From an uncultured Sphingomonadaceae bacterium (GTDB lineage: Bacteria > Pseudomonadota > Alphaproteobacteria > Sphingomonadales > Sphingomonadaceae), in the NCBI GenBank assembly GCA_964635065.1, contig CAZWMK010000002.1, positions 1,048 through 65,047 on the forward strand: 64,000 nt of DNA, read 5' to 3'. Every line of letters starts with the position of its first letter. Positions within the stretch are counted from its first letter, which is position 1. Both the position numbers and the translations under genes were made by a program. Under the pieces are notes generated by a model. That model made no database searches. It worked only from the letters and a program-made list of their open reading frames with translations, and was not told where the DNA came from. Shown here piece after piece: positions 6,193-19,802 of this stretch.

Positions 6193-6690
6193 ATGGCGAC
6201 GGATGGCCCGGCGATCACGGCCCTGATCGCTGCGTGCCCGCCGCTTGATGGCAACTCGGCCTATTGCAACCTGTTGCAGTGCAGCGACTTTGCCGACACC
6301 TGCATCGTCGCCGAACATGCGGGTGCCATCGTCGGCTGGGTATCAGGTTACAGATCGCCTGCTGCCCGGGAGAATTTTTTCATCTGGCAGGTCGCCGTAG
6401 CGCCGGACGCACGGGGACAAGGGTTGGCACAGCGGATGATCGATGCCTTGCTCGCCCGTCCCGCAGCCGCCAGCGCCGTTTATCTGACGACGACGATCAC
6501 GAACGACAATCGCGCCTCATGGGCCCTGTTCGAGGGGCTGGCCCGCGTCTGGCAGGCGCCATTCACAAAAAGCGTTCGTTTCGATCAGGACATCCATTTC
6601 GCAGGTGCGCACGCCACTGAATGGCAAGTCCGCATCGGCCCACTGCCCGCACGCGCGGCTGCCCCCCCTTCAAGGAGCATGACCTTATGA
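6193..6690 (+). CDS. ectA: L-2,4-diaminobutyrate acetyltransferase
   Basis: 'DGPAITALIAACPPLDGNSAYCNLLQCSDFADTCIVAE' and 'FIWQVAVAPDARGQGLAQRMIDALL' are the EctA/GNAT signature. The conserved 'FRQP' lies just upstream of the first ATG with no canonical start in frame. Confidence 0.88.
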   Translation: MATDGPAITALIAACPPLDGNSAYCNLLQCSDFADTCIVAEHAGAIVGWVSGYRSPAARENFFIWQVAVAPDARGQGLAQRMIDALLARPAAASAVYLTTTITNDNRASWALFEGLARVWQAPFTKSVRFDQDIHFAGAHATEWQVRIGPLPARAAAPPSRSMTL

Positions 6691-7994
6691 CAAACGCCCA
6701 TCCCATCCCCAGCCCCGGCACGCCCGATACCGCCATTTATGAACGGCGGGAATCGGCTGTTCGCAGCTATGCCCGATCGCTTCCGCGCCAGTTCACGCGC
6801 GCGGAAGGTGTGTGGATGCACGACAATCAGGGAGGGCGTTACCTCGACTTCCTGTCGGGATGTTCGACCCTGAACTATGGCCACAACCACCCGGTGCTGA
6901 AACAGGCCCTGCTCGATTATATCGCAGCCGACGGCATCACCCATGGCCTCGACCTCCACACGGATGCCAAGGCGGATTTCCTTGATGCCCTGGAAACCCA
7001 TATTCTGGAACCGCGCAACATGGACTATCGCGTCATGTTCACGGGACCGACAGGCACCAACGCCGTCGAGGCTGCCATCAAGCTGGCCCGCAAGGTGACT
7101 GGCCGCGAACTGGTGATTGCCTTCACCAATGGCTTTCACGGCATGACGCTTGGCGCCCTCGCCTGCACCGGCAATGCAACCAAGCGCGCCGGCGCTGGCG
7201 TGCCTCTCGCCCATGTCTCGCACGAGCCGTACGACGGCTATCACGGCCCGGACGTCGATACTGCGGACCTGCTCGAGCGCCGCCTGTCTGATCCGTCAAG
7301 CGGCCTGGACGCGCCCGCAGCCATTCTGGTGGAAACGGTGCAGGGCGAAGGCGGACTCAATGCGGCATCACCGGAATGGATGCGCAGGATCGCTGCGATC
7401 GCCAAACGCCACGGCGCACTGCTGATCGTCGACGACATTCAGGCAGGCTGCGGCCGCACCGGCGGCTTTTTCAGCTTCGAAGGCATGGGCTTCACGCCGG
7501 ATATCGTCACCATGGCGAAATCACTGTCGGGCATGGGCCTGCCCTTCGCCCTGACCCTGTTCCGGCCCGAACTCGACCAATGGTCGCCCGGCGAACACAA
7601 TGGCACCTTCCGGGGCAACAATCACGCCTTCGTGACGGCGGCCGCTGCGCTCCGTCATTTCTGGAGCACCAATGCCTTCCAGAAGGACGTTGCCCGCCGC
7701 GGCGGGCTGCTTGAGCGGCGACTGGACGCCATGGCCAAAAACCATGGCCTGTCCACACGTGGACGAGGCATGATGCAGGGCATCAACATGGGGTCGGGCG
7801 ACATTGCCGCGGCCGTGACCGCCCGCTGCTTCACGCAGGGGCTCATCCTCGAAACCAGCGGTCCGCACGACGAGATTGTGAAGGTGCTTGCCCCGCTTGT
7901 CATCGACGACGCGCTCCTCGCCGCAGGTCTCGACATTCTGGAAGACAGCATCGGCGAAACCATGGCCACGCCCTTTGGCGTCGCCGCCGAATAA
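6687..7994 (+). CDS. ectB: Diaminobutyrate--2-oxoglutarate transaminase
   Basis: '[52 protein letters not shown]' and '[19 protein letters not shown]', with the PLP lysine in 'TMAKSLSG'. ATGA overlap with the ectA stop. Confidence 0.95.
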
Positions 7995-8466: not shown

Positions 8467-9387
8467 ATGAAAGACCTCTACCCATCGCGCCACGCACCCG
8501 TGGCGCAGTTTTTGCCGCGCCTTGATCCCGTCGTGCACAGCGACTGGAACAATAATGCGCCGCTCAGCCTGGCACAAACCGATGCCTTCGACCGGAACGG
8601 CTTTCTTGTGCTGGAAAATCTCTTCTCAGCCGCCGAGGTTGCCTATCTGCAACACGAGGCACGCGCACTTCTGGGTGCGCCCGATGCACTTGCCACGGAA
8701 ACGGTCATCACAGAGCCAGGCAGCCGCGAAGTCCGTTCGATCTTCAACATTCACGTGCAAAGCCGGGCCATCGCGCGTCTTACCGCCGATTCACGTCTGG
8801 CGGGCGTCGCCCGTTTTCTGCTGGGTGACGATGTGTACATTCATCAGTCGCGGCTGAATTACAAACCCGGCTTTCAGGGTAAGGAATTCTACTGGCACAG
8901 CGATTTCGAGACCTGGCACGTCGAAGACGGCATGCCACGCATGCGGGCGCTGTCGATGTCGGTGCTTCTGGCCGAAAACACGCCGCACAACGGGCCACTG
9001 ATGCTGATTCCCGGATCGCATCACAGCTATCTGACCTGCGTGGGCGAAACGCCTGAAAATCATTACCGCATGTCCCTGAAAAAACAGGAATATGGCGTTC
9101 CGGACGAGGAAAGTCTTGCCGATCTTGCCGCGCGGCACGGCATTGTCGCCCCGACCGGAAAACCCGGATCGGTCGTGATCTTCGATTGCAATATCATGCA
9201 CGGCTCGAACGGCAACATCACGCCCTATCCGCGCGCCAATGCCTTTCTCGTTTACAATGCCATGACAAACCGTCTGGCCGCGCCCTTTGGGGCCGTGAAG
9301 CCGCGCCCGGATTTCATTGCCGCGCGCGACAAACCACAGGCAATTGTGCCCGTGTCGGGGCCGCTGATAGAGGAAGTGACGGCATGA
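8467..9387 (+). CDS. ectD: Ectoine hydroxylase (Fe(II)/2-oxoglutarate dioxygenase)
   Basis: 'FYWHSDFETWHVEDGMPRMRALSMSVLL' is the EctD signature region with the HxD iron ligands, followed by 'IMHGSNGNITP'. Confidence 0.95.
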   Translation: MKDLYPSRHAPVAQFLPRLDPVVHSDWNNNAPLSLAQTDAFDRNGFLVLENLFSAAEVAYLQHEARALLGAPDALATETVITEPGSREVRSIFNIHVQSRAIARLTADSRLAGVARFLLGDDVYIHQSRLNYKPGFQGKEFYWHSDFETWHVEDGMPRMRALSMSVLLAENTPHNGPLMLIPGSHHSYLTCVGETPENHYRMSLKKQEYGVPDEESLADLAARHGIVAPTGKPGSVVIFDCNIMHGSNGNITPYPRANAFLVYNAMTNRLAAPFGAVKPRPDFIAARDKPQAIVPVSGPLIEEVTA

Positions 9388-9646
9388 TGGCCGGCCATAG
9401 CGTCGAGAAAATCGGCGGCACATCAATGGCTGCCACGGCCACCCTGTTCGACAATGTGCTGATTGCCGGACGCAAGGGGCCGGATCTCTACAATCGCATT
9501 TTTGTTGTCTCCGCTTATGCCGGCATCACCAACCTGCTCCTGGAGAACAAGAAAAACAGAACGCCGGGCGTCTACGCGCCTTTGTCATGGACGATGGCAG
9601 CAATAGCTGGCGTACGGCGATGGAGGCGGTGCGCGCGGCCATTCTG
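9384..9646 (+). pseudogene. ask: Ectoine-cluster aspartokinase (ask_ect), N-terminal remnant only, frameshifted
   Basis: ATGA overlap with ectD. 'MMAGHSVEKIGGTSMAATATLFDNVLIAGRKGPDLYNRIFVVSAYAGITNLLLENKK..PGVYA' is an Ask N-terminus. The reading continues in another frame as 'FVMDDGSNSWRTAMEAVRAAIL' (1-nt loss near 9576-9581). About 85 of roughly 470 expected codons remain. Confidence 0.75.
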
Positions 9647-10401
9647 ACAATCACCGTAGCGTTGAGCGGCGGTCTGACGTTGCTGAACATGCTCTACCAG
9701 CAACGCCCCGGCGCCGCCAACAAGCCGGTGAAGGGCTATGTGCAGATTGGCTCGAACGACAGGTGCGGGTCGGCGACTGGATCGAGATGGAGCAACTGAA
9801 CGCCGACGGCGACGTCATCGACATCGCCCTGCACACGGTAAAAGTGCAGAATTTTGACAAGACGATCACCACCATACCCACGCATCGCCTGGTGTCGGAA
9901 AGTTTCCGCAACTGGCGCGGCATGTCGGAATCGGGTGGCCGCCGGATCATGCGCGCCTTGTTGCTCGATCAGACCAGCGTGCGCTTCCTCGACGCCAAGG
10001 ACATCGATCAGCTGTCGCGTTTAACCCTGCTGCACGACTATCTTGCGCACAAACAGGCGGAGATCGCGACATGGAACAAGGCGCATGCCACCAACGTGCC
10101 GGATGAACGCCGGCTGACGAATATCGGCACCTTCCGCGCCTATGTGCATGCCTATCTCAAGGCGCGGTCGGATATCGCGCAGGACAAAACCCTGATGGTC
10201 CGCCAGCTGGCTCTCGGCGAAAATGGCCTGCCGTTGCAGGTCTATGCCCTTGCCGACACGACCGACTGGGGCGAATATGAAGCGATCCAGGCCGATATCT
10301 TCGATCACCTGATCGCCATCATGCCGGCATTCGGTTTGAACCTCTATCAACGTCCGGCAGGCAGCGACCTCGTTCGATCCGCCTTTGCCCAGTGGCTCTG
10401 A
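9647..10401 (+). pseudogene. YbdG/MscM-type mechanosensitive channel, 5'-truncated and frameshifted
   Basis: 'VGDWIEMEQLNADGDVIDIALHTVKVQNFDKTITTIPTHRLVSESFRNWRGMSESGGRRI', 'TNIGTFRAYVHAYL' and 'YEAIQADIFDHLIAIMPAFGLNLYQ' align with my recollection of E. coli YbdG from about residue 170 onward. 'GYVQIGSND' sits in a different frame (shift near 9760). The TM region is absent. Confidence 0.8.
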
Positions 10402-10424
10402 TGGATAATTTTTTTGGTTTCCTT

Positions 10425-10710
10425 GGGTTGCAGGCAGATTCATCCCATGCTTTCGCGGCGCTCATGGAAGATCAGCCTGTTGAAGTTGTAGGCCAGGTTG
10501 CAAAGGGTCAGCTTCGCTTCGGCACGGGCCAGGCCGATGGTTCGGATGAACAGCCCGAATCTGTTCTTCTGATGGGCGAAGACGTGTTCGATATGGCGCG
10601 GATCGAGGACTTGGCAGCGTTGGCCCGCGCCGCTGCCTTCGGCATGGGCTTGCCCATGGGTTTGCGCCGATGGATGCGCGATATAAGCATTCGGCCCAAC
10701 CGCCACTTAC
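10425..10710 (-). mobile_element. IS5-family element remnant (terminal approx. 285 bp, transposase C-terminus, frameshifted)
   Basis: 'RHIEHVFAHQKNRFGLFIRTIGLARAEAKLTLCNLAYNFNRLIF' is an IS5/DDE_Tnp_1 C-terminus. The upstream part 'IHRRKPMGKPMPKAAARANAAKSSIRA' is in another frame. The putative terminus is GGGTTGCAGGCAGATTCATCC. Confidence 0.7.
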
Positions 10711-10944
10711 CTGTTTTCTAGCTTGTTTTTTCCTGCAATGCCTTGAAAGGTAAGTACAATTTGTCGTTTCGAGCACCTTGATTCCAGCCCCATACGTGAT
10801 GCGACGCCAAGGTGAGATTCAGCACTGTTATTCTTTCTGCCATCTCGGGCGGCTGAAGACCGCCGCGATGGTTTCGGCACGCCCAACCAACAGGAATCAA
10901 CAGGATGGTTGCGTGAGCCGTCTTCGCTTCCATCGCCGCCGTTA

Positions 10945-11392
10945 TTAGCGGAGGTGCTGGAAGTCCTGCTGCATCTGAATGGGGTTCGAGGGATCGGCCC
11001 CCATCTGCACGAGGATTGCCCGGACGGCCCCCGCAACGCGCTTCTTGAGGGTGGTCTGGTTACCGGGCTGCGATGACGTTGATGTGGAGTGGCGTGCTGC
11101 CGGCCGCAATGGCAAGCAGGCGGTCGATGTTCGGATGTGCGCCCGGACGCTGGCGTGCGTCTGCCGTATGTTCGCCAAACAGTTGCAAGCCATATTCGGC
11201 GGCCTTTGTATCCAGCATGTCAAAGCATTGGTTCAGATAATGATAGACCGCGAGCGAGCCTTGCTTGCCCGGCTGGTTTTCGATGCACGCGACAATCACG
11301 CCCTTGTCGTCGAGGAGGTCGATGCGGTGCACGTCGTCGATGGCCGGAAGATTCTCTAGGTTGTTTCTGAAGCTTGCGTCGGGTTGAAGCAT
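10945..11392 (-). pseudogene. Roadblock/LC7 (MglB-like) domain protein, apparently frameshifted near its 3' end (tentative)
   Basis: 'NLENLPAIDDVHRIDLLDDKGVIVACIE' and 'IDRLLAIAAGSTPLHINVIAAR' resemble the Roadblock/LC7 pattern. Reading continues in another frame ('NQTTLKKRVAGAVRAIL...'). No partner GTPase is nearby. Confidence 0.3.
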
Positions 11393-11560
11393 GGCCGAAA
11401 GTCCTTGAAGCCTGATGGTTGCGCGCAGGGGTTTAACAACTTCATGCCGCTCGTGTCACGACATTGTGCAGATCAAAATGCAGTGATGCCTCGAACAGGA
11501 TGCGGTCGATAGAAAGTCGACGGGGCGTAAGGTTGCCTGCTTTCCTGCTGCGATACATAA

Positions 11561-11611
11561 TTCTGCTTGTGCGTCGATTCGCGCGCATGGTGTCAATCAA
11601 GGAGGACTATC
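11561..11611 (+). promoter_or_regulatory. Candidate ROSE-like RNA thermometer in the hsp20 leader
   Basis: 5'-UUCUGCUUG (11561-11569) can pair with the SD region CAAGGAGGA (11598-11606), leaving a single G-G opposition. The UYGCU-type anti-SD is the hallmark of ROSE elements upstream of alphaproteobacterial sHSP genes. Confidence 0.35.
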
Positions 11612-12040
11612 ATGAACACTCTCGCGAAACGTAACCGTTTCTTTGATGACTTCTTTCGTGATTTCCCGTTCGGCTATGCCATCAAGCCCTTGCACGGCGA
11701 TCCGCTGCTTTCGCCTGACAAGATCAAGATCGATGTCAGAAATAATGAAAAGAGTTTCACCGTGCAGGCCGAAATGCCGGGTCTCAACAAGGACGATATT
11801 CATGTCACGGTCGATGGGAATATCGTCACCATCCAGGCCGAGGTGAAGCAATATGACGCCGACACCGAAGATGGTCAGACTGTCCACTCCGAACGTTATT
11901 ATGGCGCGATCCAGCGCAGCTTTGCGCTGCCCTCAGCGGTCGCGGAAGCCAATGTGACGGCAAAATACGAGAATGGTATTCTGGTTCTGAACCTGCCGAA
12001 GGAAGATGCAGCGGCGACCAGAAAGGTTGTTATCAGCTGA
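11612..12040 (+). CDS. Hsp20/alpha-crystallin family small heat-shock protein
   Basis: AGGAGG SD precedes the start. 'FTVQAEMPGLNKDDIHVTVDGNIVTIQAEVK', 'ERYYGAIQRSFALP' and 'AKYENGILVLNLPK' form a canonical alpha-crystallin domain. Confidence 0.92.
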   Translation: MNTLAKRNRFFDDFFRDFPFGYAIKPLHGDPLLSPDKIKIDVRNNEKSFTVQAEMPGLNKDDIHVTVDGNIVTIQAEVKQYDADTEDGQTVHSERYYGAIQRSFALPSAVAEANVTAKYENGILVLNLPKEDAAATRKVVIS

Positions 12041-12064
12041 ACGCCCGGTCAGGGGCGGTCGGCT

Positions 12065-12096
12065 GGCCGGGAGGGACAGCCTGTCGCCTCCCGGCC
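12065..12096. terminator. GC-rich hairpin between convergent hsp20 and yeaQ-like genes
   Basis: GGCCGGGAGG / CCTCCCGGCC 10-bp stem with a 12-nt loop and no clear U-tract. Confidence 0.3.
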
Positions 12097-12105
12097 GCGC
12101 GATGG

Positions 12106-12372
12106 TCAGCGGATGGACTTGCGCTGAACCAGATTGACAATTCCAAGCAGGATGACCGCGCCGACAAAGGCGACGATCAGGCCGGTGATGGAAAATTCCT
12201 GCACGCTGCCCCTGATGCCGAACAGCGGGCCGGAGACCGCATTTCCGATCAATGAGCCGACAATGCCGACGATAATATTCCACAAGAGGCCCATCGAGGC
12301 ATCGCGGTTCATCACGAGACTGGCGAGCCATCCAGCGACGCCGCCTACGATCAGTGCAATGATCCAACCCAT
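12106..12372 (-). CDS. GlsB/YeaQ/YmgE-family stress-response membrane protein
   Basis: 'GWIIALIVGGVAGWLASLVM', 'GLLWNIIVGIVGSLIGN' and 'LIVAFVGAVILLGIVNLV' are typical of the transglycosylase-associated family. Confidence 0.85.
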   Translation of the reverse strand: MGWIIALIVGGVAGWLASLVMNRDASMGLLWNIIVGIVGSLIGNAVSGPLFGIRGSVQEFSITGLIVAFVGAVILLGIVNLVQRKSIR

Positions 12373-12384
12373 TTTATGCTCTCC

Positions 12385-13143
12385 TCAGTTGCGGATTTCT
12401 ACTTGTGTAACGCTGACGCCTACATATTGATCCGTTTCGAGAGGGGCTTCTTCGTCACGTGACGACAACAGAAACCGCCAGATCAGCGCACCAATGGCAG
12501 CGCCGATGAGAGGGGCGACCCAGAACAGCCACAATTGTCCCATGGCCGCAGTGTCGGCGAAAAGCGCCACGCCTGTCGAACGCGCCGGGTTGACCGAGGT
12601 GTTGGTGACGGGAATCGAGATCAGGTGAATGAGAGTCAGCGCCAGTCCGATCGCAACCGGGGCGAAGCCGGCCGGCGCCGTCCGTGCCGTTGCGCCGAGG
12701 ATCACGATAAGAAAACCTGCGGTCAGAATGATTTCCGTCAGGAGTGCGGCACCCATCGCATATCCACCGGGCGAGAGCGCGCCATAGCCGTTCGTGGCAA
12801 AACCACCTGCACTCCAGCCTGCCTTGCCGGACGCAACGGCATATAGCGCGGCCCCGGCGGCGACCGCGCCGAGGATCTGGGCGATCCAGTAGGGGATGAG
12901 ATCCCGCCAGGCGAAGCGCTTGGCCAGCGCAAGGCCAAGCGAAACTGCGGGATTGAAATGGCCGCCCGAGATGCCGCCCACGGCATAGGCCATGGTCAGA
13001 ACGGTCAGACCGAAGGCCAGCGATACACCAGCAAAACCGATGCCGAGTTCGGGAAAGGCCGCAGCCAGAACCGCCGACCCGCAACCGCCGAACACAAGCC
13101 AGAATGTGCCGATCAATTCGGCAGATAATTTGCGTAACATCAT
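12385..13143 (-). CDS. aqpZ: Aquaporin Z
   Basis: '[21 protein letters not shown]' with two NPA boxes ('[11 protein letters not shown]', '[11 protein letters not shown]'). It has an unusual roughly 25-aa C-terminal extension. Confidence 0.95.
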
Positions 13144-13210
13144 TCTCTCCCCTGGTTGTTCATCCCGTGATGTTCAGCCTTGGCAGCAACCCCTGGCGCA
13201 AGGCGCTGGA

Positions 13211-13804
13211 TCAGCGCCCCAGACGGCTGGCCAAGCTGAGGATGTCGTCGAGGGGATTGCCGTCACCGTCGGCGTCGATCAGCGCCGCAAGGCCGCCAAG
13301 CCCGCCCGACTGGGCCTGTCCGCCGCCCAAGGCGCCACCGAGCACCTGACCGAGCAGGCCGCCGAGACCGCCCTGGGCGGACGCATCGCTCGATGCACCG
13401 CTCTTCTGCTGGGCGAGAAAGCCGGTGACGGCCATGGCGAGGAGCGGCAGCATCTTCTTGAGGAGCGTGGCGTCGATCCCGGTCGACTGCGCCGCCTGGC
13501 CTGCGACTGTGCGGCTGACATCCCTGGAGCCGAAGATCTGTCCAAGAATTTCATTGCCCGGTGCGGTCGGCGTGGGTTCGTTTCTGGTGACGGCGTCAAG
13601 CAAATTGCCGCCACCGACGCTACCCAGCATGTCGATCAAGCCACCAAGGCCGCCGGGCGCGGGCTGCGCCTGTTTCTTGAAGCCGCCGAGAATGGCGGGC
13701 AGCAGGGCTTCGACCCCGTTGCGCGCTGTGGCTTGATCAACCCCAAGTTCGCGCGAGATCGATTCGACTGCGCCGGTCTGTTTCAGGATGTCTGCAAAAT
13801 TCAT
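13211..13804 (-). CDS. DUF937-family protein
   Basis: 'MNFADILKQTGAVESISRELGVDQATARNGVEALLPAILGGFKKQ' followed by Gly-rich repeats (GGLGGL), typical of DUF937. Confidence 0.65.
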   Translation of the reverse strand: MNFADILKQTGAVESISRELGVDQATARNGVEALLPAILGGFKKQAQPAPGGLGGLIDMLGSVGGGNLLDAVTRNEPTPTAPGNEILGQIFGSRDVSRTVAGQAAQSTGIDATLLKKMLPLLAMAVTGFLAQQKSGASSDASAQGGLGGLLGQVLGGALGGGQAQSGGLGGLAALIDADGDGNPLDDILSLASRLGR

Positions 13805-14104
13805 GGAGCATTCTTTCCGGTGCAATAATGACTGGAGCTTCGCAGGGCATCAGAAACTGCCAGTGCGACTTGTTCAGGAAGCGTACACGGCAAATAATTA
13901 TTTTGTGGATGCTGCCACATAATTACAGTTTGATCGATGTTTTTTTTACAAGGAAATTCAAGGCGACACCCTTGATGTGTGCGAGGGGATAAACTGTTGT
14001 GAAAACAACCATTCACGCTGTTACGATGATAAATCATAGCTCTTGTCAGTGGCAGGCTGATTTCATTTTCCCTCAAGCCGCGATCTGTGGTTGATGCTGG
14101 CCGC

Positions 14105-15526
14105 ATGACTATGTCGGGAGCATCGCGCGCGGCCTTCGCGCTCTTCTCAGTCGCCCTGGGCGTCATGGCGGCGGGCTGTGCGGCCGGTGACGATTATCGC
14201 CCGCCCGTCGAGACGGACCTCGGCATCCCGCCAGCCTATCGCGGGACCGAGGCACAGACGTTGGAGGCGAGGCAGCTGGCCGATTGGTGGCGCCGCTTCG
14301 ACGATCCGGCGCTTGACGCTCTGATCGCGCGCGCGCTTTTTACAAATCTTGACATCACGCAGGCGCGGCTGAGGCTGGTGCAGGCGCGTGAAGCGGCGGT
14401 TCAGGCTGGCGCGGCCTATGCCCCGCGCATTGATGCCAGCCTGGATGGAGGGCGCAACCTGCGTATGCCCGGTGCCGATGGCAGCCGCTTTTCGGCTGGT
14501 GCCGACGCAAGCTGGGAAATCGATCTGTTCGGCGGCATTGGCCGGTCGGTCGAAGCGGCCAGAGCGGCCGCCGAAAGCGTGGAATATGACCTTGCCAGCG
14601 TGCGCGTGGCCATCATTGCCGAAACGGCAAGCAATTACATCCAGCTCCGCCAGCTGCAGGAACAGAAACGCATCGCGCGCGAGACGCTGACGATACAGGA
14701 TGATAATCTGCAGATCGCGCAATGGCGCGTCATGGCCGGGCTGGCATCCGTACTTGATGTGGAGCAGGCCCGGACCCAGCGTGCGCAGACGGCGGCCAGT
14801 CTGCCGCTGCTTGAAGAGTCCATACGCAACACGCTTGCCCGTATCGCGGTCCTGACCGGACAAGCGCCCGGCGCGGCGACGCGTCTGCTGGAAACGCCGG
14901 GCCTGATCCCGATGCCGCCTGCCGTGATTGCCGCGGGCATTCCGGCAGATACATTGCGGCAACGGCCCGATGTCCGGGCCGCCGAACGGGCGCTGGCGCG
15001 GCAGACGGCGCTGATCGGTGTATCCGAGGCACAATTGCGTCCCGGGCTTTTCATCAGTGGCAATATCGGGAGCACGGCTCTGCGCTTTGGCGCACTGGGC
15101 GACATTGTGACCGGTGGCCTGTTCATGGGGCTGCGCCAGCTGATTTTCGACGGCGGTGCCGCGCGTTCTCGCGTCCGGGCGCAGCGCGCGGCTGCGGATG
15201 GTGCCTTTGCCGCCTATCGCCAGAACATATTGACGGCGCTGGAAGATGTGGAAAACGGCCTTGTTGCGGTCGACGCAACGTCCGAACGCTATGCGCAGCT
15301 TGAAATCGCGCGCGATGCCGCCAGCAATTCGGCGCTCCTGGCCCGCGACCAATATCGTGCGGGGCTGACCGATTTCAGTGCCCTGCTGGATGCCGAACGA
15401 TCACTGTTGTCCAGCCGGAACAACGAAGCGGCCGGCCGGGCCGACCGCGCCCGCGCCGTGGTGCAGCTTTATCGCGCATTGGGCGGAGGATGGCAGACGA
15501 TGGATGATGGAATACAGAATGACTGA
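14105..15526 (+). CDS. Efflux outer-membrane factor lipoprotein (NodT/OprM family)
   Basis: Lipobox 'VMAAGCA', then 'WWRRFDDPALDALIARAL..NLDI' and a second repeat 'RPDVRAAERALA'. This is the two-repeat TolC-like architecture. Confidence 0.85.
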   Translation: MTMSGASRAAFALFSVALGVMAAGCAAGDDYRPPVETDLGIPPAYRGTEAQTLEARQLADWWRRFDDPALDALIARALFTNLDITQARLRLVQAREAAVQAGAAYAPRIDASLDGGRNLRMPGADGSRFSAGADASWEIDLFGGIGRSVEAARAAAESVEYDLASVRVAIIAETASNYIQLRQLQEQKRIARETLTIQDDNLQIAQWRVMAGLASVLDVEQARTQRAQTAASLPLLEESIRNTLARIAVLTGQAPGAATRLLETPGLIPMPPAVIAAGIPADTLRQRPDVRAAERALARQTALIGVSEAQLRPGLFISGNIGSTALRFGALGDIVTGGLFMGLRQLIFDGGAARSRVRAQRAAADGAFAAYRQNILTALEDVENGLVAVDATSERYAQLEIARDAASNSALLARDQYRAGLTDFSALLDAERSLLSSRNNEAAGRADRARAVVQLYRALGGGWQTMDDGIQND

Positions 15527-16892
15527 CCCTGCCGCGCACGCAGACAAACCCTCGATCGAAGCGCTTCTGGGCGTGACGCCGCAGAAACCCTGGCGCACAT
15601 GGCTGGCGCGCGGCGCTGCGCTTGTCGCGCTTCTGCTGGCGCTCTATCTGCTGACGCGCTGTTTTGGCGGCGAGGACGTGCCCCGCTACATCTCGCAGTC
15701 GGTCGAACGTGGCGATCTTGTCGTCACCGTATCGGCAACCGGCAATCTGAAGCCGGTCAACCAGGTCGATGTCGGCTCCGAACAATCGGGCCTGATCACG
15801 CATGTGCTGGTGGACGTCAACGATCAGGTGACAAAGGGGCAGCTCCTGGCGCGTCTCGATACATCACGGCTGCTGGATAATGTGGCACAGGGGCGGGCGC
15901 AGGTGACAGCGGCGCAGGCGCAGGTGGCACAGGCGGACGCGCAGGCGTCGCTGGCGCGTGCCACGCTAGCGCGGCAGGAGCATGTCCACGCGCTGTCCGG
16001 CGGCAAGGTGCCGTCGAAAACCGAACTCGACAGCGCGCGGGCGCAAACGGCGGCGGCTGTGGCCACTGCACAGGCAGCGCGGGCGCAACTGGCGGTGGCG
16101 CGGGCGCAATTGTCGTCGGCTGAAATCAACCTGTCCAAGGCGCGCATCGTCTCGCCGGTGACGGGCGTGGTGCTGTCGCGGGCAATCGAGCCGGGCCAGA
16201 CGGTGGCGGCATCGTTCAACGCGCCGGTGCTGTTCACCATCGCAGAGGATCTGCGCAAGATGGAACTTGAAGTCGCGGTCGACGAGGCGGACGTTGGCGT
16301 GGTCACGGCCGGCCAGTCAGCGGTTTTTACGGTCGATGCCTTTCCCGGACGCACTTTTCCCGCGCGTATCACCCGCGTCAATGTCGGTGCCAATACGGCG
16401 GGCGCTGCCACGGGAAGCAGCAGCGCGGCGGCCAGCGTCGTGTCCTATTCGGCGGTGCTCGCCGTCGATAATCAGGATCAGACCCTGCGCCCGGGCATGA
16501 CCGCGACCGCCGAAATCCGTGCGCGCGAGGTCAAGGGCGCATTGCTGGTGCCCAATGCGGCCTTGCGCTTTTCGCCTGACGCGGCATCGGGTGCGGACAA
16601 TCGCGGTATCACCGGAACCCTGATTCCGCCACGCATGCGGCGGGGCAATGGCACGCGCACGGTCAGCTTTGGCGCCGGCAGTCGCCAGACGGTTCATGTC
16701 GAGGAAAGCGAAGGGCAATTGCGCGCCGTCAACCTGATCGTGGGCGACAGCGATGGCAGCATGACCGTGGTGTCGGACTCTGCGCTGAAAGCGGGCATGC
16801 GTGTGGTCACCGGTCGCCTGGCGGCCGGGCAGACCGTTGCCGGGGCATCCGGACGTCGCAACACGAACGGAACAAGCGCCAATGGCCGATGA
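15519..16892 (+). CDS. HlyD/MacA-type periplasmic adaptor subunit
   Basis: TM anchor 'GAALVALLLALYLL'. 'VTVSATGNLKPVNQVDVGSEQSGLITHVLVDVNDQVTKGQLLARLD' is followed by a coiled-coil Ala/Gln-rich hairpin and 'ARIVSPVTGVVLSR'. An alternative start is at 15504. Confidence 0.85.
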   Translation: MTDPAAHADKPSIEALLGVTPQKPWRTWLARGAALVALLLALYLLTRCFGGEDVPRYISQSVERGDLVVTVSATGNLKPVNQVDVGSEQSGLITHVLVDVNDQVTKGQLLARLDTSRLLDNVAQGRAQVTAAQAQVAQADAQASLARATLARQEHVHALSGGKVPSKTELDSARAQTAAAVATAQAARAQLAVARAQLSSAEINLSKARIVSPVTGVVLSRAIEPGQTVAASFNAPVLFTIAEDLRKMELEVAVDEADVGVVTAGQSAVFTVDAFPGRTFPARITRVNVGANTAGAATGSSSAAASVVSYSAVLAVDNQDQTLRPGMTATAEIRAREVKGALLVPNAALRFSPDAASGADNRGITGTLIPPRMRRGNGTRTVSFGAGSRQTVHVEESEGQLRAVNLIVGDSDGSMTVVSDSALKAGMRVVTGRLAAGQTVAGASGRRNTNGTSANGR

Positions 16893-17586
16893 CCAACCGC
16901 TGATCCGCCTGCGCGGGATCACCAAGACCTTTGGCACGGGCGCTGCGGCCTTTCAGGCCCTGAAGGGGGTCGATCTTGATATCGATGCCGGTGATTTCGT
17001 CGCCATCATGGGGCCATCGGGTTCGGGCAAGTCGACGATGATGAACATTCTCGGCTGTCTTGATGTGCCGACCACGGGCCAGTTCAGCTTCAAGGGCCAC
17101 GCCATCGAACGGCTGAACAATGATCAGCGCGCCTTGTTGCGACGAAAATATCTCGGCTTTGTCTTTCAGGGCTTCAATCTTTTGTCCCGGACATCGGCGC
17201 TGGAAAATGTCGAATTGCCTCTGGTTTATCGCGGCATGGACAAGCAGGAACGCCGCCGCCTTGGCATGGCGGCACTTGAACGGATGGGCCTCGCGGAATG
17301 GTGGGATCATACGCCTGCCGAACTGTCGGGCGGGCAGCAGCAGCGGGTCGCCATCGCCCGCGCCATCGTCACCAGTCCCGAAGTGCTGCTGGCAGACGAA
17401 CCGACCGGCAATCTCGATACGGAACGCTCACTCGAAATCATGAAACTGCTGGATGGTTTCAACCGCGATGCAGGGCTGACCATTCTCATGGTCACGCACG
17501 AAGCGGAAATGGCCCGCTTTGCGCATACAGTCATTCATTTCCGCGATGGCCGGGTTGAAAATATCGAACGACGAGCGCGCGGATGA
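16882..17586 (+). CDS. ABC transporter ATP-binding protein (MacB/LolD-type, stand-alone ATPase)
   Basis: Walker A 'GPSGSGKST', Q-loop, signature '[14 protein letters not shown]' and Walker B '[11 protein letters not shown]'. It overlaps the upstream stop. Confidence 0.92.
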
Positions 17587-18791
17587 TCGGGATCACCATC
17601 AATCTCGCCCTGCGTGAAATCATGCGCCACAAGCTGCGCGCTTTTTTGACGACGCTTGGCATCATCATCGGTGTTTCTGCGGTTGTCACCATGGTCACGC
17701 TGGGAAGAGGAGCGACGGCTGCAGTCAGTCAGCAAATCAGCGCGCTTGGCTCGAACATCCTGCAACTGCGGCCCGGTCAGGGATATGGCCGTGGCGGTGG
17801 CGGGCCGCGTCCGCCCGACTTCAAGGCGCAGGATGTCGCGGCCATTGCGCGACAGATTGCCGGGATCAGGGCCGTTGCGCCGCAAGCGCAGACAAGCGGC
17901 ATAGCCGTCTATGGCGGCAACAACTGGAGCACGACGATCAACGGCACGACCTCTGCCTATTTCGAGGCCCAGAAATGGGAACTGCAAAGCGGCCGCCTGT
18001 TCATGGCGGAAGAGGAACAGGCCGGAAAGGCCGTGTGCATCATCGGGCAGACGCTGCGCGCAAACCTGTTTAAACAGGCCGACCCCATCGGCAGGCAGTT
18101 TCGCATCAAGGATGTCAGCTGCCAGGTGATCGGCCTGCTGTCTGCGCGCGGGCAGGCGGGGTTTGGCGCCAACCAGGATGATGTCGTGATCATGCCGATC
18201 AAGCTGGTGCAGCGCCGCTTTACCGGCAACCGCGACATCAGCATGATCATGGTCGCGGTCGACGATGCTTATGATACGCAGGGCGTGCAGGCGTCGATCG
18301 AGGATCTGATGCGCGAACGGCGCCGGATCAAGCCGGGCAGCGAGGACAATTTCAATATCTTCGATACACGGCAGGTCATGGATACGCTGACCGGTACAAC
18401 GACGATCCTGACACAGATCGTGTCCGCCGTGGCAGCCATTTCCCTGCTTGTTGGCGGCATCGGTATCATGAACATCATGCTTGTCTCGGTGACGGAACGC
18501 ACCCGCGAAATCGGTATCCGCCTTGCCATCGGCGCGGTGGCGCACGAAGTCTTGCTGCAATTTCTGGTGGAAGCCGTCGTATTGTCCTGCCTTGGCGGCT
18601 TGGCCGGGCTGGTGCTGGCCTTCGCGGCTTCCGCGCTCATCGCTCCGATGATGCAGGTGCCCTTCATCTTCGACCCGCAGATCAACCTTCTGGCTTTTCT
18701 GTTTTCGGCGGCGATCGGCGTTCTGTTCGGCTATTTCCCGGCCCGCCGTGCCGCCGCGCTCAACCCGATCGATGCCTTGCGTCACGAATGA
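17583..18791 (+). CDS. ABC transporter permease (MacB_PCD + FtsX domains)
   Basis: ATGA overlap with the ATPase gene. 'LREIMRHKLRAFLTTLGIIIGVSAVV' and the C-terminal FtsX region 'ERTREIGIRLAIGA' and 'FGYFPARRAAALNPIDALRHE'. Confidence 0.92.
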   Translation: MIGITINLALREIMRHKLRAFLTTLGIIIGVSAVVTMVTLGRGATAAVSQQISALGSNILQLRPGQGYGRGGGGPRPPDFKAQDVAAIARQIAGIRAVAPQAQTSGIAVYGGNNWSTTINGTTSAYFEAQKWELQSGRLFMAEEEQAGKAVCIIGQTLRANLFKQADPIGRQFRIKDVSCQVIGLLSARGQAGFGANQDDVVIMPIKLVQRRFTGNRDISMIMVAVDDAYDTQGVQASIEDLMRERRRIKPGSEDNFNIFDTRQVMDTLTGTTTILTQIVSAVAAISLLVGGIGIMNIMLVSVTERTREIGIRLAIGAVAHEVLLQFLVEAVVLSCLGGLAGLVLAFAASALIAPMMQVPFIFDPQINLLAFLFSAAIGVLFGYFPARRAAALNPIDALRHE

Positions 18792-18820
18792 AAGCAGCTG
18801 TGCCGTGAACGTCAGTGCCT

Positions 18821-18930
18821 TTAGGCAAAGGCGGATCGGACCAGGTTGCTGCCTGCCGGACGTTGATAGAGGTTCAAGCCGAATGCCGGCATGATGGCGA
18901 TCAGGTGATCGAAGATATCGGCCTGGATCG
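18821..18930 (-). pseudogene. 3'-terminal 36 codons of a second ybdG-type mscS gene
   Basis: The reverse complement matches 10283-10389 with 4 mismatches in about 108 nt ('QADIFDHLIAIMPAFGLNLYQRPAGSNLVRSAFA*'). The rest of the gene is missing. Confidence 0.7.
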
Positions 18931-19030
18931 TGCTGAAGCGAAGCTGACCCTTTGCAACCTGGCCTGCAACTTCAACAGGCTGATCTTCCATGAGCGTCGC
19001 GAAAGCATGGGATGAATCTGCCTTGAACCG
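18931..19030 (+). mobile_element. IS5-family element remnant (terminal approx. 100 bp)
   Basis: Encodes 'RAEAKLTLCNLACNFNRLIFHERRESMG*'. About 97% identical to the inverted copy at 10433-10524. Terminus CCTTGAACC, reading GGTTCAAGGCAGATTCATCC inward. Confidence 0.7.
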
Positions 19031-19060
19031 CCTCGGGATTGCAGGAGGCCATTCGCTTTA

Positions 19061-19802
19061 AATTATGTGGCCATTGGTGCCAACATCATGGCGGCTCTAC
19101 TGGGCACCATCACGCCGTTCTGCTCCTGCTCGTCCATTCCCTTGTTCATCGGCTTCACCAGCGCTGGCTTGCCGATCGGGGTGACTGGTGGACCTCGCCT
19201 CCATCATCCTGCTGGCCAGCGTGTTCAACTGGGCGATCGCGCTGGCTTATGTCGCAGTCGGCCTTGTGCTCGCTGTGCTGGGAGGCACGCTGATCAGCCG
19301 GATGAAAATGGAGCACCATGTCGAGGCATTCGTGTTCAACAGCCCGGTCATGGAGAGCGAGGATGGCCATCTGACCCGGCGCCAGCGCTGCGACTTCGCC
19401 TGGGATCAGGTTGCCGAAATTTTTGCCAAGGTCTGGTTCTATGTGCTCATCGGCGTCGGCATCGGGGCTGCCATTCACAACTGGGTGCCCGAAGCCTTCA
19501 TTGCCGCACTGCTGGGGCAGGACAAATGGTGGTCGGTCCTCGTCGCGACGTTGGTCGGGATCCCGATATACGCCGATATCTTCGGCACCCTTCCCATTGC
19601 AGAAGCACTGGTCGGCAAAGGCGTGGGCATCGGCACCGCCCTGGCGTTCATGACAGCGGTGACCGCCCTGTCCCTGCCCTCCATGATCATGCTCAAACGC
19701 GTCATAAAATTGCCGCTGCTGCTGCTCGTCGCAGGAATCGTTGCCGTCGGCATCATCCTGATCGGCTATCTGTTCAACGCTTTTGGCACCATGTTCCATT
19801 GA
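19061..19802 (+). pseudogene. ArsP/DUF318-type permease (CxC 'TPFCSCS' family), 5'-truncated with an internal deletion/frameshift at about 19187
   Basis: '[37 protein letters not shown]' in one frame is joined after one stray nt to '[13 protein letters not shown]...[32 protein letters not shown]' in another. The expected N-terminal roughly 60 aa are absent at the IS scar. Confidence 0.7.

Follow-up and report, generated by a model that had tools for sequence, protein, structure and literature searches.

In the analysed stretch of DNA (64,000 nucleotides from an uncultured Sphingomonadaceae bacterium, referred to as the window), two pairs of inverted repeats bracket a block of stress and efflux genes. 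One pair is derived from the 3' end of mscS and the other from an IS5-family element. The two pairs stand in swapped order, the IS breakpoints are internal to the element and microhomology is present at both new junctions. Most likely, the repeats are an ordinary, non-functional rearrangement scar and not transposon ends. They may well be the footprint of one imprecise inversion of ~8.4 kb, which would have proceeded by inverted template switches in replication, with no transposase activity, and would have been followed by deletions.

Inverted repeat pairs and their order

A repeat search of the window returned the mscS pair at 10283–10401 and 18812–18930 (119 nt, 93% identity) and the pair from the transposase 3' end at 10426–10538 and 18917–19029 (113 nt, 94% identity). 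Within-genome BLAST of the two arm pairs gave E-values of 2e-45 and 6e-44, which excludes chance; the near-identical inverted fragments described in the initial annotation are therefore real. The mscS core (10283–10389) differs between copies A and B at 4 of about 105–107 nt and the IS core at 3 of about 100 nt. The earlier difference counts are thus right on alignment, and the identity of 96–97% given with them holds for the cores but not for the whole arms, where it falls to 93–94% because additional mismatches cluster at the arm ends. The longest identical runs between the arms are 52 nt in mscS and 31 nt in the IS. Of the seven core substitutions, five affect third codon positions. Comparison with relatives assigns the amino-acid replacements D>N and Y>C and the nonsense change Q>stop to the B copies.

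On the + strand, copy A reads mscS end and then IS(-), and copy B reads the reverse complement of the mscS end and then IS(+). Both pairs are inverted and their order is swapped, which gives the layout a.b.d'.c'.b'.d.e. This reading confirms that copy B is not the plain reverse complement of copy A. Arm b (10283–10401, + strand) is the last 119 nt of mscS. Arm d' (10426–10538, - strand) comprises 99 nt of IS coding sequence with the stop codon and 14 nt beyond it. Arm b' (18812–18930, - strand) is a decayed mscS 3' end that carries the D>N change, a premature TAA (18821–18823) and the old TGA (18812–18814). Arm d (18917–19029, + strand) is IS5-family fragment B in sense orientation, corresponds to IS positions of about 1061–1173, carries the Y>C change and has no terminal inverted repeat. 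At one arm end, a cluster of changes (CAG TGG CTC to TAA AGG CAC) creates a perfect hairpin, GCCTTT-AGGC-AAAGGC, at 18817–18832.

IS5-family fragments

IS fragment A (10398–10708, - strand) consists of the last 88 transposase codons and a tail of ~42 nt, with the stop codon at 10440–10442. It corresponds to positions 890–1201 of a 1310-bp IS relative. The 88-residue translation matches plasmid IS5/IS1182-family transposases with up to 83% amino-acid identity, and an intact relative of 359 residues passes the NCBIfam model NF033581 (IS5 family; 204.8 bits, cut-off 140). Both results confirm the IS5-family origin. The transposase content of the window is limited to C-terminal fragments. In the 2.4-Mb assembly only three fragments of this IS are present; the third, on contig C68, also has no terminus.

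Four intact IS relatives were compared, from Novosphingobium, Acetobacter and two Sphingobium plasmids. All four have terminal inverted repeats (..GGTTTTTGCGGGTCTCCAGCT) of 20–22 nt, located about 130–150 nt beyond the transposase stop. The fragments end 42 nt (A) and 14 nt (B) beyond the stop, and a search of the window that allowed up to 3 mismatches found no copy of the relatives' terminal repeat. Thus, all IS boundaries are internal breakpoints. Positions 10425 and 19030, previously taken as IS termini, are not termini, and the 24 nt regarded as a spacer in copy A are IS tail sequence.

A decayed composite transposon with outward-facing IS termini was considered and rejected, as the outer boundaries (10398 and 19029) lie inside the IS. 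In the window, no direct repeat that could be a target-site duplication is present at the boundaries. The flanks differ, with the mscS 3' end on the left and an ArsP-like permease gene lacking its start on the right. The composite-transposon-like bracket suggested in the initial annotation, with no intact IS outer end and no terminal repeat, is not supported, and the bracketed segment neither is nor was mobile as a unit.

Flanking genes and the enclosed block

In relatives, the gene order is ectABCD-ask-MFS-MFS-mscS, with mscS as the last gene of the ect operon. Here, a remnant of ask_ect, the aspartokinase gene of the ectoine cluster (9381–9632, + strand, about 82 codons), marks the left edge of a deletion of ~4.4 kb. 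A tblastn search with a relative's gene for a 483-aa protein with AA_kinase and ACT domains (L107, 6320–7768) matched only with residues 3–82. The remnant runs into a 5'-truncated mscS (segments a and b; 9623–10401, + strand), which extends from about codon 113 to the TGA at 10399–10401. Its product contains the Pfam domains MS_channel_2nd and MS_channel_3rd, relatives align to residues 1–209 of 212, and nucleotide homology to the mscS genes of L106 and L107 begins at 9623.

Segment c', the putative inverted block (10709–18811), consists of 350 nt of unassigned sequence, the gene block and a 20-nt spacer after macB. By Pfam, the block encodes DUF2322 (11060–11392, - strand), hsp20 (11567–12040, + strand), yeaQ/Transgly_assoc (12106–12372, - strand), aqpZ (12385–13143, - strand), DUF937 (13211–13825, - strand) and nodT-macA-macB (14087–18791, + strand), the last being an operon conserved in sphingomonads. 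To the right of fragment B, a stretch of 37 nt (19030–19066) matches no IS tail nor anything else in the genome; a resemblance to the IS tail at 14 of 17 positions is not significant. It is followed by the ArsP-like permease remnant (19067–19802, + strand), which lacks Pfam profile positions 1–50 and is split over two frames by a frameshift near 19186. No other ArsP piece was found in the genome. Both outer flanks are therefore damaged genes, as had been noted.

Junctions

At junction A (b/d', 10398–10403), the mscS stop region is joined to the IS tail ~42 nt beyond the transposase stop, with CTGAnG in common. BLAST to the Novosphingobium IS gives one unbroken match from 10708 to 10398 (85%), and the mscS homology of A to copy B extends to 10403. 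The mscS homology between the copies thus ends exactly where the IS tail of A starts, which fits the expectation if this is a switch point.

Junction B (b'/d, 18917–18930) reads ATCGGCCTGGATCG. Both parents have ATCGGCCTGG, followed by two mismatches and then CG. The shared 10-mer is located at 18917–18926 and is present in the mscS and IS parents (A, + strand, 10287–10296 and 10529–10538), so the microhomology described earlier is real, as are the IGLD and IGLA translations. The 10-mer is not the crossover itself, however. Copy B has the mscS-type AT directly after ATCGGCCTGG, which places the crossover in the following CG (18929–18930). The homeologous stretch has 12 matches in 14 nt, including the 3' CG; we estimate the probability of such agreement at a random junction at about 1e-5.

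Both new junctions are characterized by microhomology, and not by long homology or a recombinase site. They are reciprocal: A joins the mscS end to the IS end, and B joins the mscS interior to the IS interior. DNA around the four breakpoints is not predicted to fold better than shuffled sequence (z from -0.4 to -1.9), so nothing points to a fork-stalling structure.

Proposed inversion

Reciprocal junctions are the signature of one inversion with staggered breakpoints, and with such staggering both the mscS piece (b) and the IS piece (d) come to be present as inverted duplicates. In the model that we infer, with its ancestral order, replicative mechanism and order of later deletions, the ancestor would have carried ectABCD-ask-MFS-MFS-mscS(+), then a convergent macB-macA-nodT(-), further genes up to DUF2322, a resident IS5-family element (+) and further sequence. 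During replication, the nascent strand would have reached the mscS stop and switched to the opposite template in the IS tail, ~42 nt beyond the transposase stop, by CTGA pairing. It would then have copied backward through the IS, the entire gene block and the final 119 nt of mscS. By pairing on ATCGGCCTGGnnCG, it would have returned to the IS at a point 99 nt ahead of the transposase stop and continued from there. By such staggered switches, mscS[-119..stop] (b) and IS[-99..+42] (d) would each be present twice and inverted, as in a.b.d'.c'.b'.d.e. In later decay, the IS would have lost its 5' part (break at 10708), copy B its IS tail and the ArsP-like permease gene its start (break at 19029). 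In addition, ~4.4 kb from ask into mscS would have been deleted, and the copies would have diverged by 3–4%.

The similar core divergence of the two pairs (4 differences in mscS, 3 in the IS) is consistent with one origin. As the 2.4-Mb assembly holds so few fragments of this IS, two independent IS-mscS juxtapositions would be an unlikely coincidence. On the other hand, the IS of copy B ends at +14 and not at or beyond +42, so the inversion requires an extra deletion or a third switch.

The ancestral adjacency of mscS and macB was sought in relatives. Both genes are present in 13 same-family genomes, where they lie on separate contigs or at a distance of over 120 kb, and the 13 sphingomonad macB loci compared all lack a downstream mscS. 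At the closest mscS loci, the neighbouring genes are different ones. Searches of genome contigs, metagenome contigs and the protein collection yielded no relative above about 81% nucleotide identity. The relatives compared are distant (at most 81%), and in every one of them synteny is lost at both gene ends. The missing adjacency is therefore absent support for the inversion, not a refutation.

Alternative explanations

The same layout could have been reached by independent deletions, which we regard as unlikely. Two inverted IS copies and a second, 96%-identical mscS tail-to-tail with macB would each have been eroded by microhomology-mediated deletions, with four deletion junctions (10398–10403, 10708, 18917–18930 and 19029). 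The region is deletion-prone (the ask-mscS deletion, the truncated permease), the fragment on C68 has likewise lost its terminus, and the ancestral mscS/macB adjacency of a single-copy gene is not required. The third-position bias is expected if both copies diverged while coding; it fits divergence of functional genes slightly better, with a likelihood ratio of about 2.5 for this explanation by our estimate. However, an unobserved duplication or import of mscS is needed, as well as a second IS insertion beside the mscS copy and about three more events than for the inversion. Apart from this gene, the genome has a single mscS homologue, with 71% identity, and relatives carry this mscS once, at the end of the ect operon. 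The reciprocal junctions and the equal divergence of the two pairs are left unexplained. The original proposal, in which a second mscS paralogue and a second IS copy were each largely deleted, is accordingly possible but less parsimonious than an inversion. Rather unlikely, too, is a templated patch with unchanged orientation of the block. Here a break between macB and the permease gene would be repaired by invasion of a pre-existing locus A, with copying from 10403 back to 10283, a slip at CCAGGCCGAT, copying from 10538 back to 10426 and return, leaving a templated insertion of 232 nt. Since CCAGGCCGAT is a direct repeat in A on the + strand (10287–10296 and 10529–10538), junction B equals the slippage or tandem-duplication junction of a 256-nt unit of A. 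Neither the mscS/macB adjacency nor a later deletion at 19029 is necessary, and MMBIR-type repair is known to yield templated insertions with several switches (PMC6286558). This path nevertheless requires three switches, shows no demonstrable microhomology at the outer ends of B and has to start within ~3 nt of the existing mscS/IS junction of A, for which we estimate a chance of about 0.02–0.03.

The genome is a metagenome-assembled genome (88% complete, 210 contigs, 4% contamination), and the two junctions might not be together on one chromosome if the contig were an assembly, strain-mixture or amplification chimera. This is very unlikely. Artefacts copy sequence exactly, but the arms differ by 6–7% and include a nonsense change. 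Each junction sequence alone already implies staggered breakpoints, and a strain mixture would require that inversions arose independently in two strains at nearly identical sites. A programmed invertible segment acting as a phase-variation switch can hardly be envisaged, even though inverted repeats of 113–119 nt flank a gene block and their identical runs could in principle allow RecA-dependent flipping. All long ORFs between 6.6 and 29 kb were annotated with Pfam, and no invertase or recombinase gene came to light in or beside the block. Moreover, the arms are pseudogene fragments that have diverged by 6–7% and are not homogenised, and the pairs are permuted, which no known switch requires.

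Implications

Inverted IS fragments around efflux and stress genes are a tempting target for mis-annotation as a composite transposon, which is corrected here. If the inversion is true, hsp20, yeaQ and aqpZ came to lie beside the ectoine cluster as a by-product of rearrangement and do not form a selected 'stress island'. Template-switch inversions can be recognised without a reference genome by a simple signature, namely two pairs of inverted repeats whose order is swapped and whose breakpoints lie on microhomology. If the present inversion is indeed replicative, such permuted pairs could serve as a genome-wide search key for the frequency of these inversions, and for measuring template switching against IS- or rRNA-mediated reshaping of bacterial chromosomes. 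Template-switch inversions have already been shown in laboratory Escherichia coli and in human genomes. To our knowledge, reports of them as fixed events in natural bacteria are rare. We tentatively suggest that the present locus could be a natural, fixed bacterial case of a replicative dupINVdup inversion with flanking duplications of more than 100 nt, recognisable by swapped inverted repeats and perhaps by mutation clusters at the arm ends. These clusters may be traces of error-prone or quasipalindrome-templated synthesis.

Comparison with known systems

Like an IS-bounded composite transposon (for example of the Tn5 or Tn10 type, or one bounded by IS5-family elements), the locus has two inverted pieces of one IS around efflux and stress genes. 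In contrast to such a transposon, neither piece here has a terminal inverted repeat or a whole transposase gene, and a target-site duplication is absent. In Salmonella, the tandem inversion duplication (TID) is reportedly remodelled by deletions (Kugelberg et al. 2010, Genetics 185:65). A TID begins by strand-switching at short, imperfect inverted sequences, and deletions trimming its two direct copies can in principle leave a.b.d'.c'.b'.d.e. A TID contains three copies of the whole segment, whereas only duplications of ~0.1 kb are present here, with no sign of a triplicated intermediate.

In starving E. coli, near-reciprocal non-homologous inversions and complex rearrangements are explained by two inverted template switches (Lin et al. 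2011, PLoS Genet, PMC3161906), and the junction microhomologies of the complex events are 3–30 bp (PMC3161906). As in that study, the locus is bacterial, with two junctions at unequal positions, microhomology and no mobile-element enzyme, and the proposed mechanism is likewise an inverted switch followed by a return switch, inside or close to a fork (PMC3161906). Compared with the E. coli inversions (PMC3161906), the offsets here are 119 and at least 113–141 nt and no stalling secondary structure is evident. The event here is old (3–4% divergence) and fixed in a natural lineage, and its parent arrangement is a reconstruction.

The dupINVdup class of human complex structural variants (Brand 2015 as cited; Collins 2017, PMC5338099; Sanchis-Juan 2018, PMC6286558) shows junction microhomology and is attributed to FoSTeS/MMBIR (PMC5338099, PMC6286558). 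The human cases are defined by comparison with a reference genome, and their duplications span kilobases up to hundreds of kilobases; those described here are ~0.1 kb and have no reference state. The order a.b.d'.c'.b'.d.e is the same in both, inverted duplicates of the two breakpoint regions lying on either side of an inversion, and the layout of the present locus matches that of dupINVdup case P4 (PMC6286558).

Inverted repeats at both ends of the gene block

Two inverted repeat pairs bracket the block of genes comprising DUF2322, hsp20, yeaQ, aqpZ, DUF937 and nodT-macA-macB. A repeat search places pair 1 at 10283–10401 and 18812–18930 (119 nt, 93%) and pair 2 at 10426–10538 and 18917–19029 (113 nt, 94%), with E-values within the genome of 2e-45 and 6e-44. 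The only other genome match of either arm is an mscS paralogue on contig C61 (71% identical). The core mismatch counts of the initial annotation are borne out by alignment, with 4 differences over 107 nt for mscS and 3 over ~100 nt for the insertion sequence (IS); additional mismatches between the left locus (A) and the right locus (B) are concentrated at the arm ends.

Pair 1 is the authentic 3' end of mscS, to which relatives align up to residue 209 of 212. Copy B of this end translates to IQADIFDHLIAIMPAFGLNLYQRPAGSNLVRSAFA, followed by a stop. Pair 2 comes from the 3' end of an IS5-family transposase gene, which lies in antisense orientation in A and in sense orientation in B. The swapped block order had also been read correctly: on the plus strand, A consists of the mscS end and the IS in minus orientation, B consists of the reverse complement of the mscS end and the IS in plus orientation, and both blocks are inverted.

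At 18817–18832 the last three mscS codons of copy B are changed from CAG TGG CTC to TAA AGG CAC, and two of these substitutions create a hairpin with a perfect stem of 6 bp, GCCTTT-AGGC-AAAGGC. They may represent a quasipalindrome-templated mutation cluster, or else chance.

Boundaries of the IS fragments

The initial annotation suggested defining the ends of the element from an intact copy in the same genome. No such copy was found in the assembly, and four intact plasmid-borne relatives served to define the termini (Novosphingobium humi, Acetobacter oryzifermentans, Sphingobium herbicidovorans and Sphingobium sp. YC-XJ3). These elements are ~1.3 kb long, and those annotated as full length encode a transposase of 359 aa. 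Their terminal inverted repeats of 20–22 nt (..GGTTTTTGCGGGTCTCCAGCT) lie ~130–150 nt past the stop codon, which is at position 1159 of the Novosphingobium IS.

By BLAST with the Novosphingobium element, fragment A is a single piece covering IS positions 890–1201 (window 10708–10398, 85%). Fragment B covers positions 1061–1167, and the A/B alignment stretches its end to ~1173. Fragment A directly abuts the mscS stop codon; the 24 nt at 10402–10425, previously regarded as a spacer, are placed by BLAST in the IS tail. Positions 10425 and 19030 had been taken for outward-facing IS termini, and neither is an end of the IS when placed against the intact relatives. The terminal inverted repeat is absent throughout the window at ≤3 mismatches. 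Since the boundaries are not termini and the terminal repeats are missing, the proposed composite transposon fails its defining tests. Fragment B was also considered as a different IS variant with a tail running past 19029, and this was rejected: the downstream sequence matches none of the four IS tails.

A third fragment of the same IS (positions 416–831, 88% to the Novosphingobium copy), likewise without ends, is present at 6212–6627 of contig C68. Its neighbours are a phage-type integrase gene on one side and an RND efflux operon on the other, and the locus is unrelated to the block.

Junctions

Junction B (18917–18930) reads ...GATCGAAGATATCGGCCTGGATCG before and TGCTGAAGCG... after the join. 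The mscS parent is ATCGGCCTGGATCG, then CTTCAT, and the IS parent is ATCGGCCTGGCCCG, then TGCCGA; the join thus sits within the final CG. The parents match at 12 of 14 nt. The 10-mer reported earlier as junctional microhomology is present, but the actual join lies beyond it and beyond two mismatches. A 3' end ...GGATCG that paired with the IS template and was then extended would be expected to leave this layout.

Junction A (10398–10403) reads ...GGCTCTGA and then TGGATAAT.... The corresponding sequence is CACTGACG in mscS copy B and CCTGAAGGGTAAT in the tail of the Novosphingobium IS, and their comparison gives CTGAnG as common to both parents.

No fork-stalling hairpins were detected at the four breakpoints, where DNA folding is no better than in shuffles. 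The 37 nt between fragment B and the permease remnant (19030–19066) have no match. A fold-back, considered from a 14/17 likeness of 19032–19048 to the antisense IS tail (10417–10433), was discarded, as 112 of 2000 shuffles reach this likeness (p ~0.06).

Flanking regions and synteny

The window corresponds to positions 1048–65047 of contig CAZWMK010000002.1 in a metagenome-assembled genome of 2.4 Mb in 210 contigs, with 88% completeness and 4% contamination. Its genes have their closest homologues in Sphingobium, Sphingomonas and Novosphingobium; the reference set includes no further species of the host genus.

The left flank is an ectoine/hydroxyectoine locus with the aminotransferase gene ectB (6621–7994) and the PhyH-type dioxygenase gene ectD (8467–9387). 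In relatives the ect cluster is followed by ask, two MFS transporter genes and mscS, which is last and has a convergent, variable neighbour. The tail of the cluster is collapsed at 9381–10401, and both MFS genes are absent. An ask remnant of ~82 codons (9381–9632) runs into mscS, which is retained from ~codon 113 (9623–10401). Compared with the order in relatives, this fusion implies a deletion of ~4.4 kb.

Between fragment A and DUF2322, ~350 nt (10709–11060) have no Pfam match in long frames and no other copy in the genome. The 'Roadblock-like remnant' annotated at 10.7–11.06 kb is accordingly without Pfam match, and the adjoining gene is DUF2322. On the right, an ArsP-like permease remnant (19067–19802) lacks its start and carries a frameshift near 19186. 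A search of 24 same-family genomes gave no homologue at E≤1e-20 and one of 40 relatives gave a single match (37% identity), which identifies the gene as accessory DNA.

GC skew of the plus strand is positive at ~10–24 kb and negative in the remainder of the 64-kb window. As an inversion marker it was rejected: the switch does not fit the 10.4–18.9 kb block and marks a larger interval, and the per-gene third-position skew follows gene content, which suggests an effect of the genes present.

Synteny was searched in GTDB family genomes, in genome contigs (macB), in metagenome contigs (degenerate mscS pattern) and in a protein collection (macB and mscS) with its contigs. These collections contain no relative closer than ~81% nucleotide or 90% amino-acid identity, and an exact-protein look-up found no record identical to the macB product of the window. 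In the family genomes and in the contigs of all these sources, mscS never adjoins macB; the two are near each other in none of 13 same-family genomes with both genes. Synteny downstream of either gene differs in every relative examined.

Origin of the rearrangement

Let a stand for the body of mscS, b for mscS[-119..stop], c for the gene block plus upstream IS sequence, d for IS[-99..+42] and e for whatever followed. The window then has the order a.b.d'.c'.b'.d.e, in which b and d meet twice, end to end at junction A and start to start at junction B. This is the exact structure of an inversion with two staggered junctions. In the event proposed here, replication of mscS would have arrived at the stop codon and jumped to the opposite template within the IS tail. 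Copying would then have run backwards along the IS and the block and on into mscS for 119 nt, until a second switch returned synthesis forward into the IS. A single event of this kind would explain why b and d are each duplicated and swapped in order, why each junction lies on microhomology, why the two repeat pairs have diverged to a similar degree and why the A/B mscS homology stops precisely at the start of the IS tail of A. Later events would be required for a break at 10708 with loss of the upstream IS part, a break at 19029 with loss of the remaining IS tail and the first ~50 profile positions of the permease, and the ask-mscS deletion. Under an inversion, mscS and macB should have been convergent neighbours in the ancestor; the synteny of relatives is a lack of support for this and no contradiction.

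The initial annotation without its termini amounts to two independent IS copies and a duplicate mscS, all of them shortened by deletions. The region is plainly prone to deletion and third codon positions account for 5 of the 7 core substitutions, which suits this explanation. It requires, however, an unobserved 96%-identical mscS duplicate and a second IS insertion beside it, costs ~3 more events and does not account for the reciprocal junctions; we consider it a minor possibility. Without any inversion, a break between macB and the permease could have received a 232-nt patch templated by locus A, with synthesis slipping back at the direct repeat CCAGGCCGAT (10287–10296 and 10529–10538). This is unlikely: three switches are needed, and the start point must coincide with the pre-existing junction of A.

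An assembly artefact is unlikely given the 6–7% difference between the arms. An invertible segment acting as a programmed switch is highly improbable, with no recombinase found and arms that are decaying pseudogene pieces. The feature is a rearrangement scar without function, in a stretch of decaying DNA that separates the ectoine cluster from an accessory permease. Its most probable origin, at about even chances, is an old template-switch inversion with flanking inverted duplications of ~0.1 kb. The original observation stands, and its interpretation is partly supported.

The structure is that of the human dupINVdup class of complex structural variants, and case P4 of PMC6286558 is identical in its order (see also PMC5338099). 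In starving E. coli, Lin et al. (2011, PMC3161906) found 3–30 bp of microhomology at the junctions of complex events, and explained these and near-reciprocal inversions by two inverted template switches during replication. The scar is a newly seen natural case of this already known type of event.
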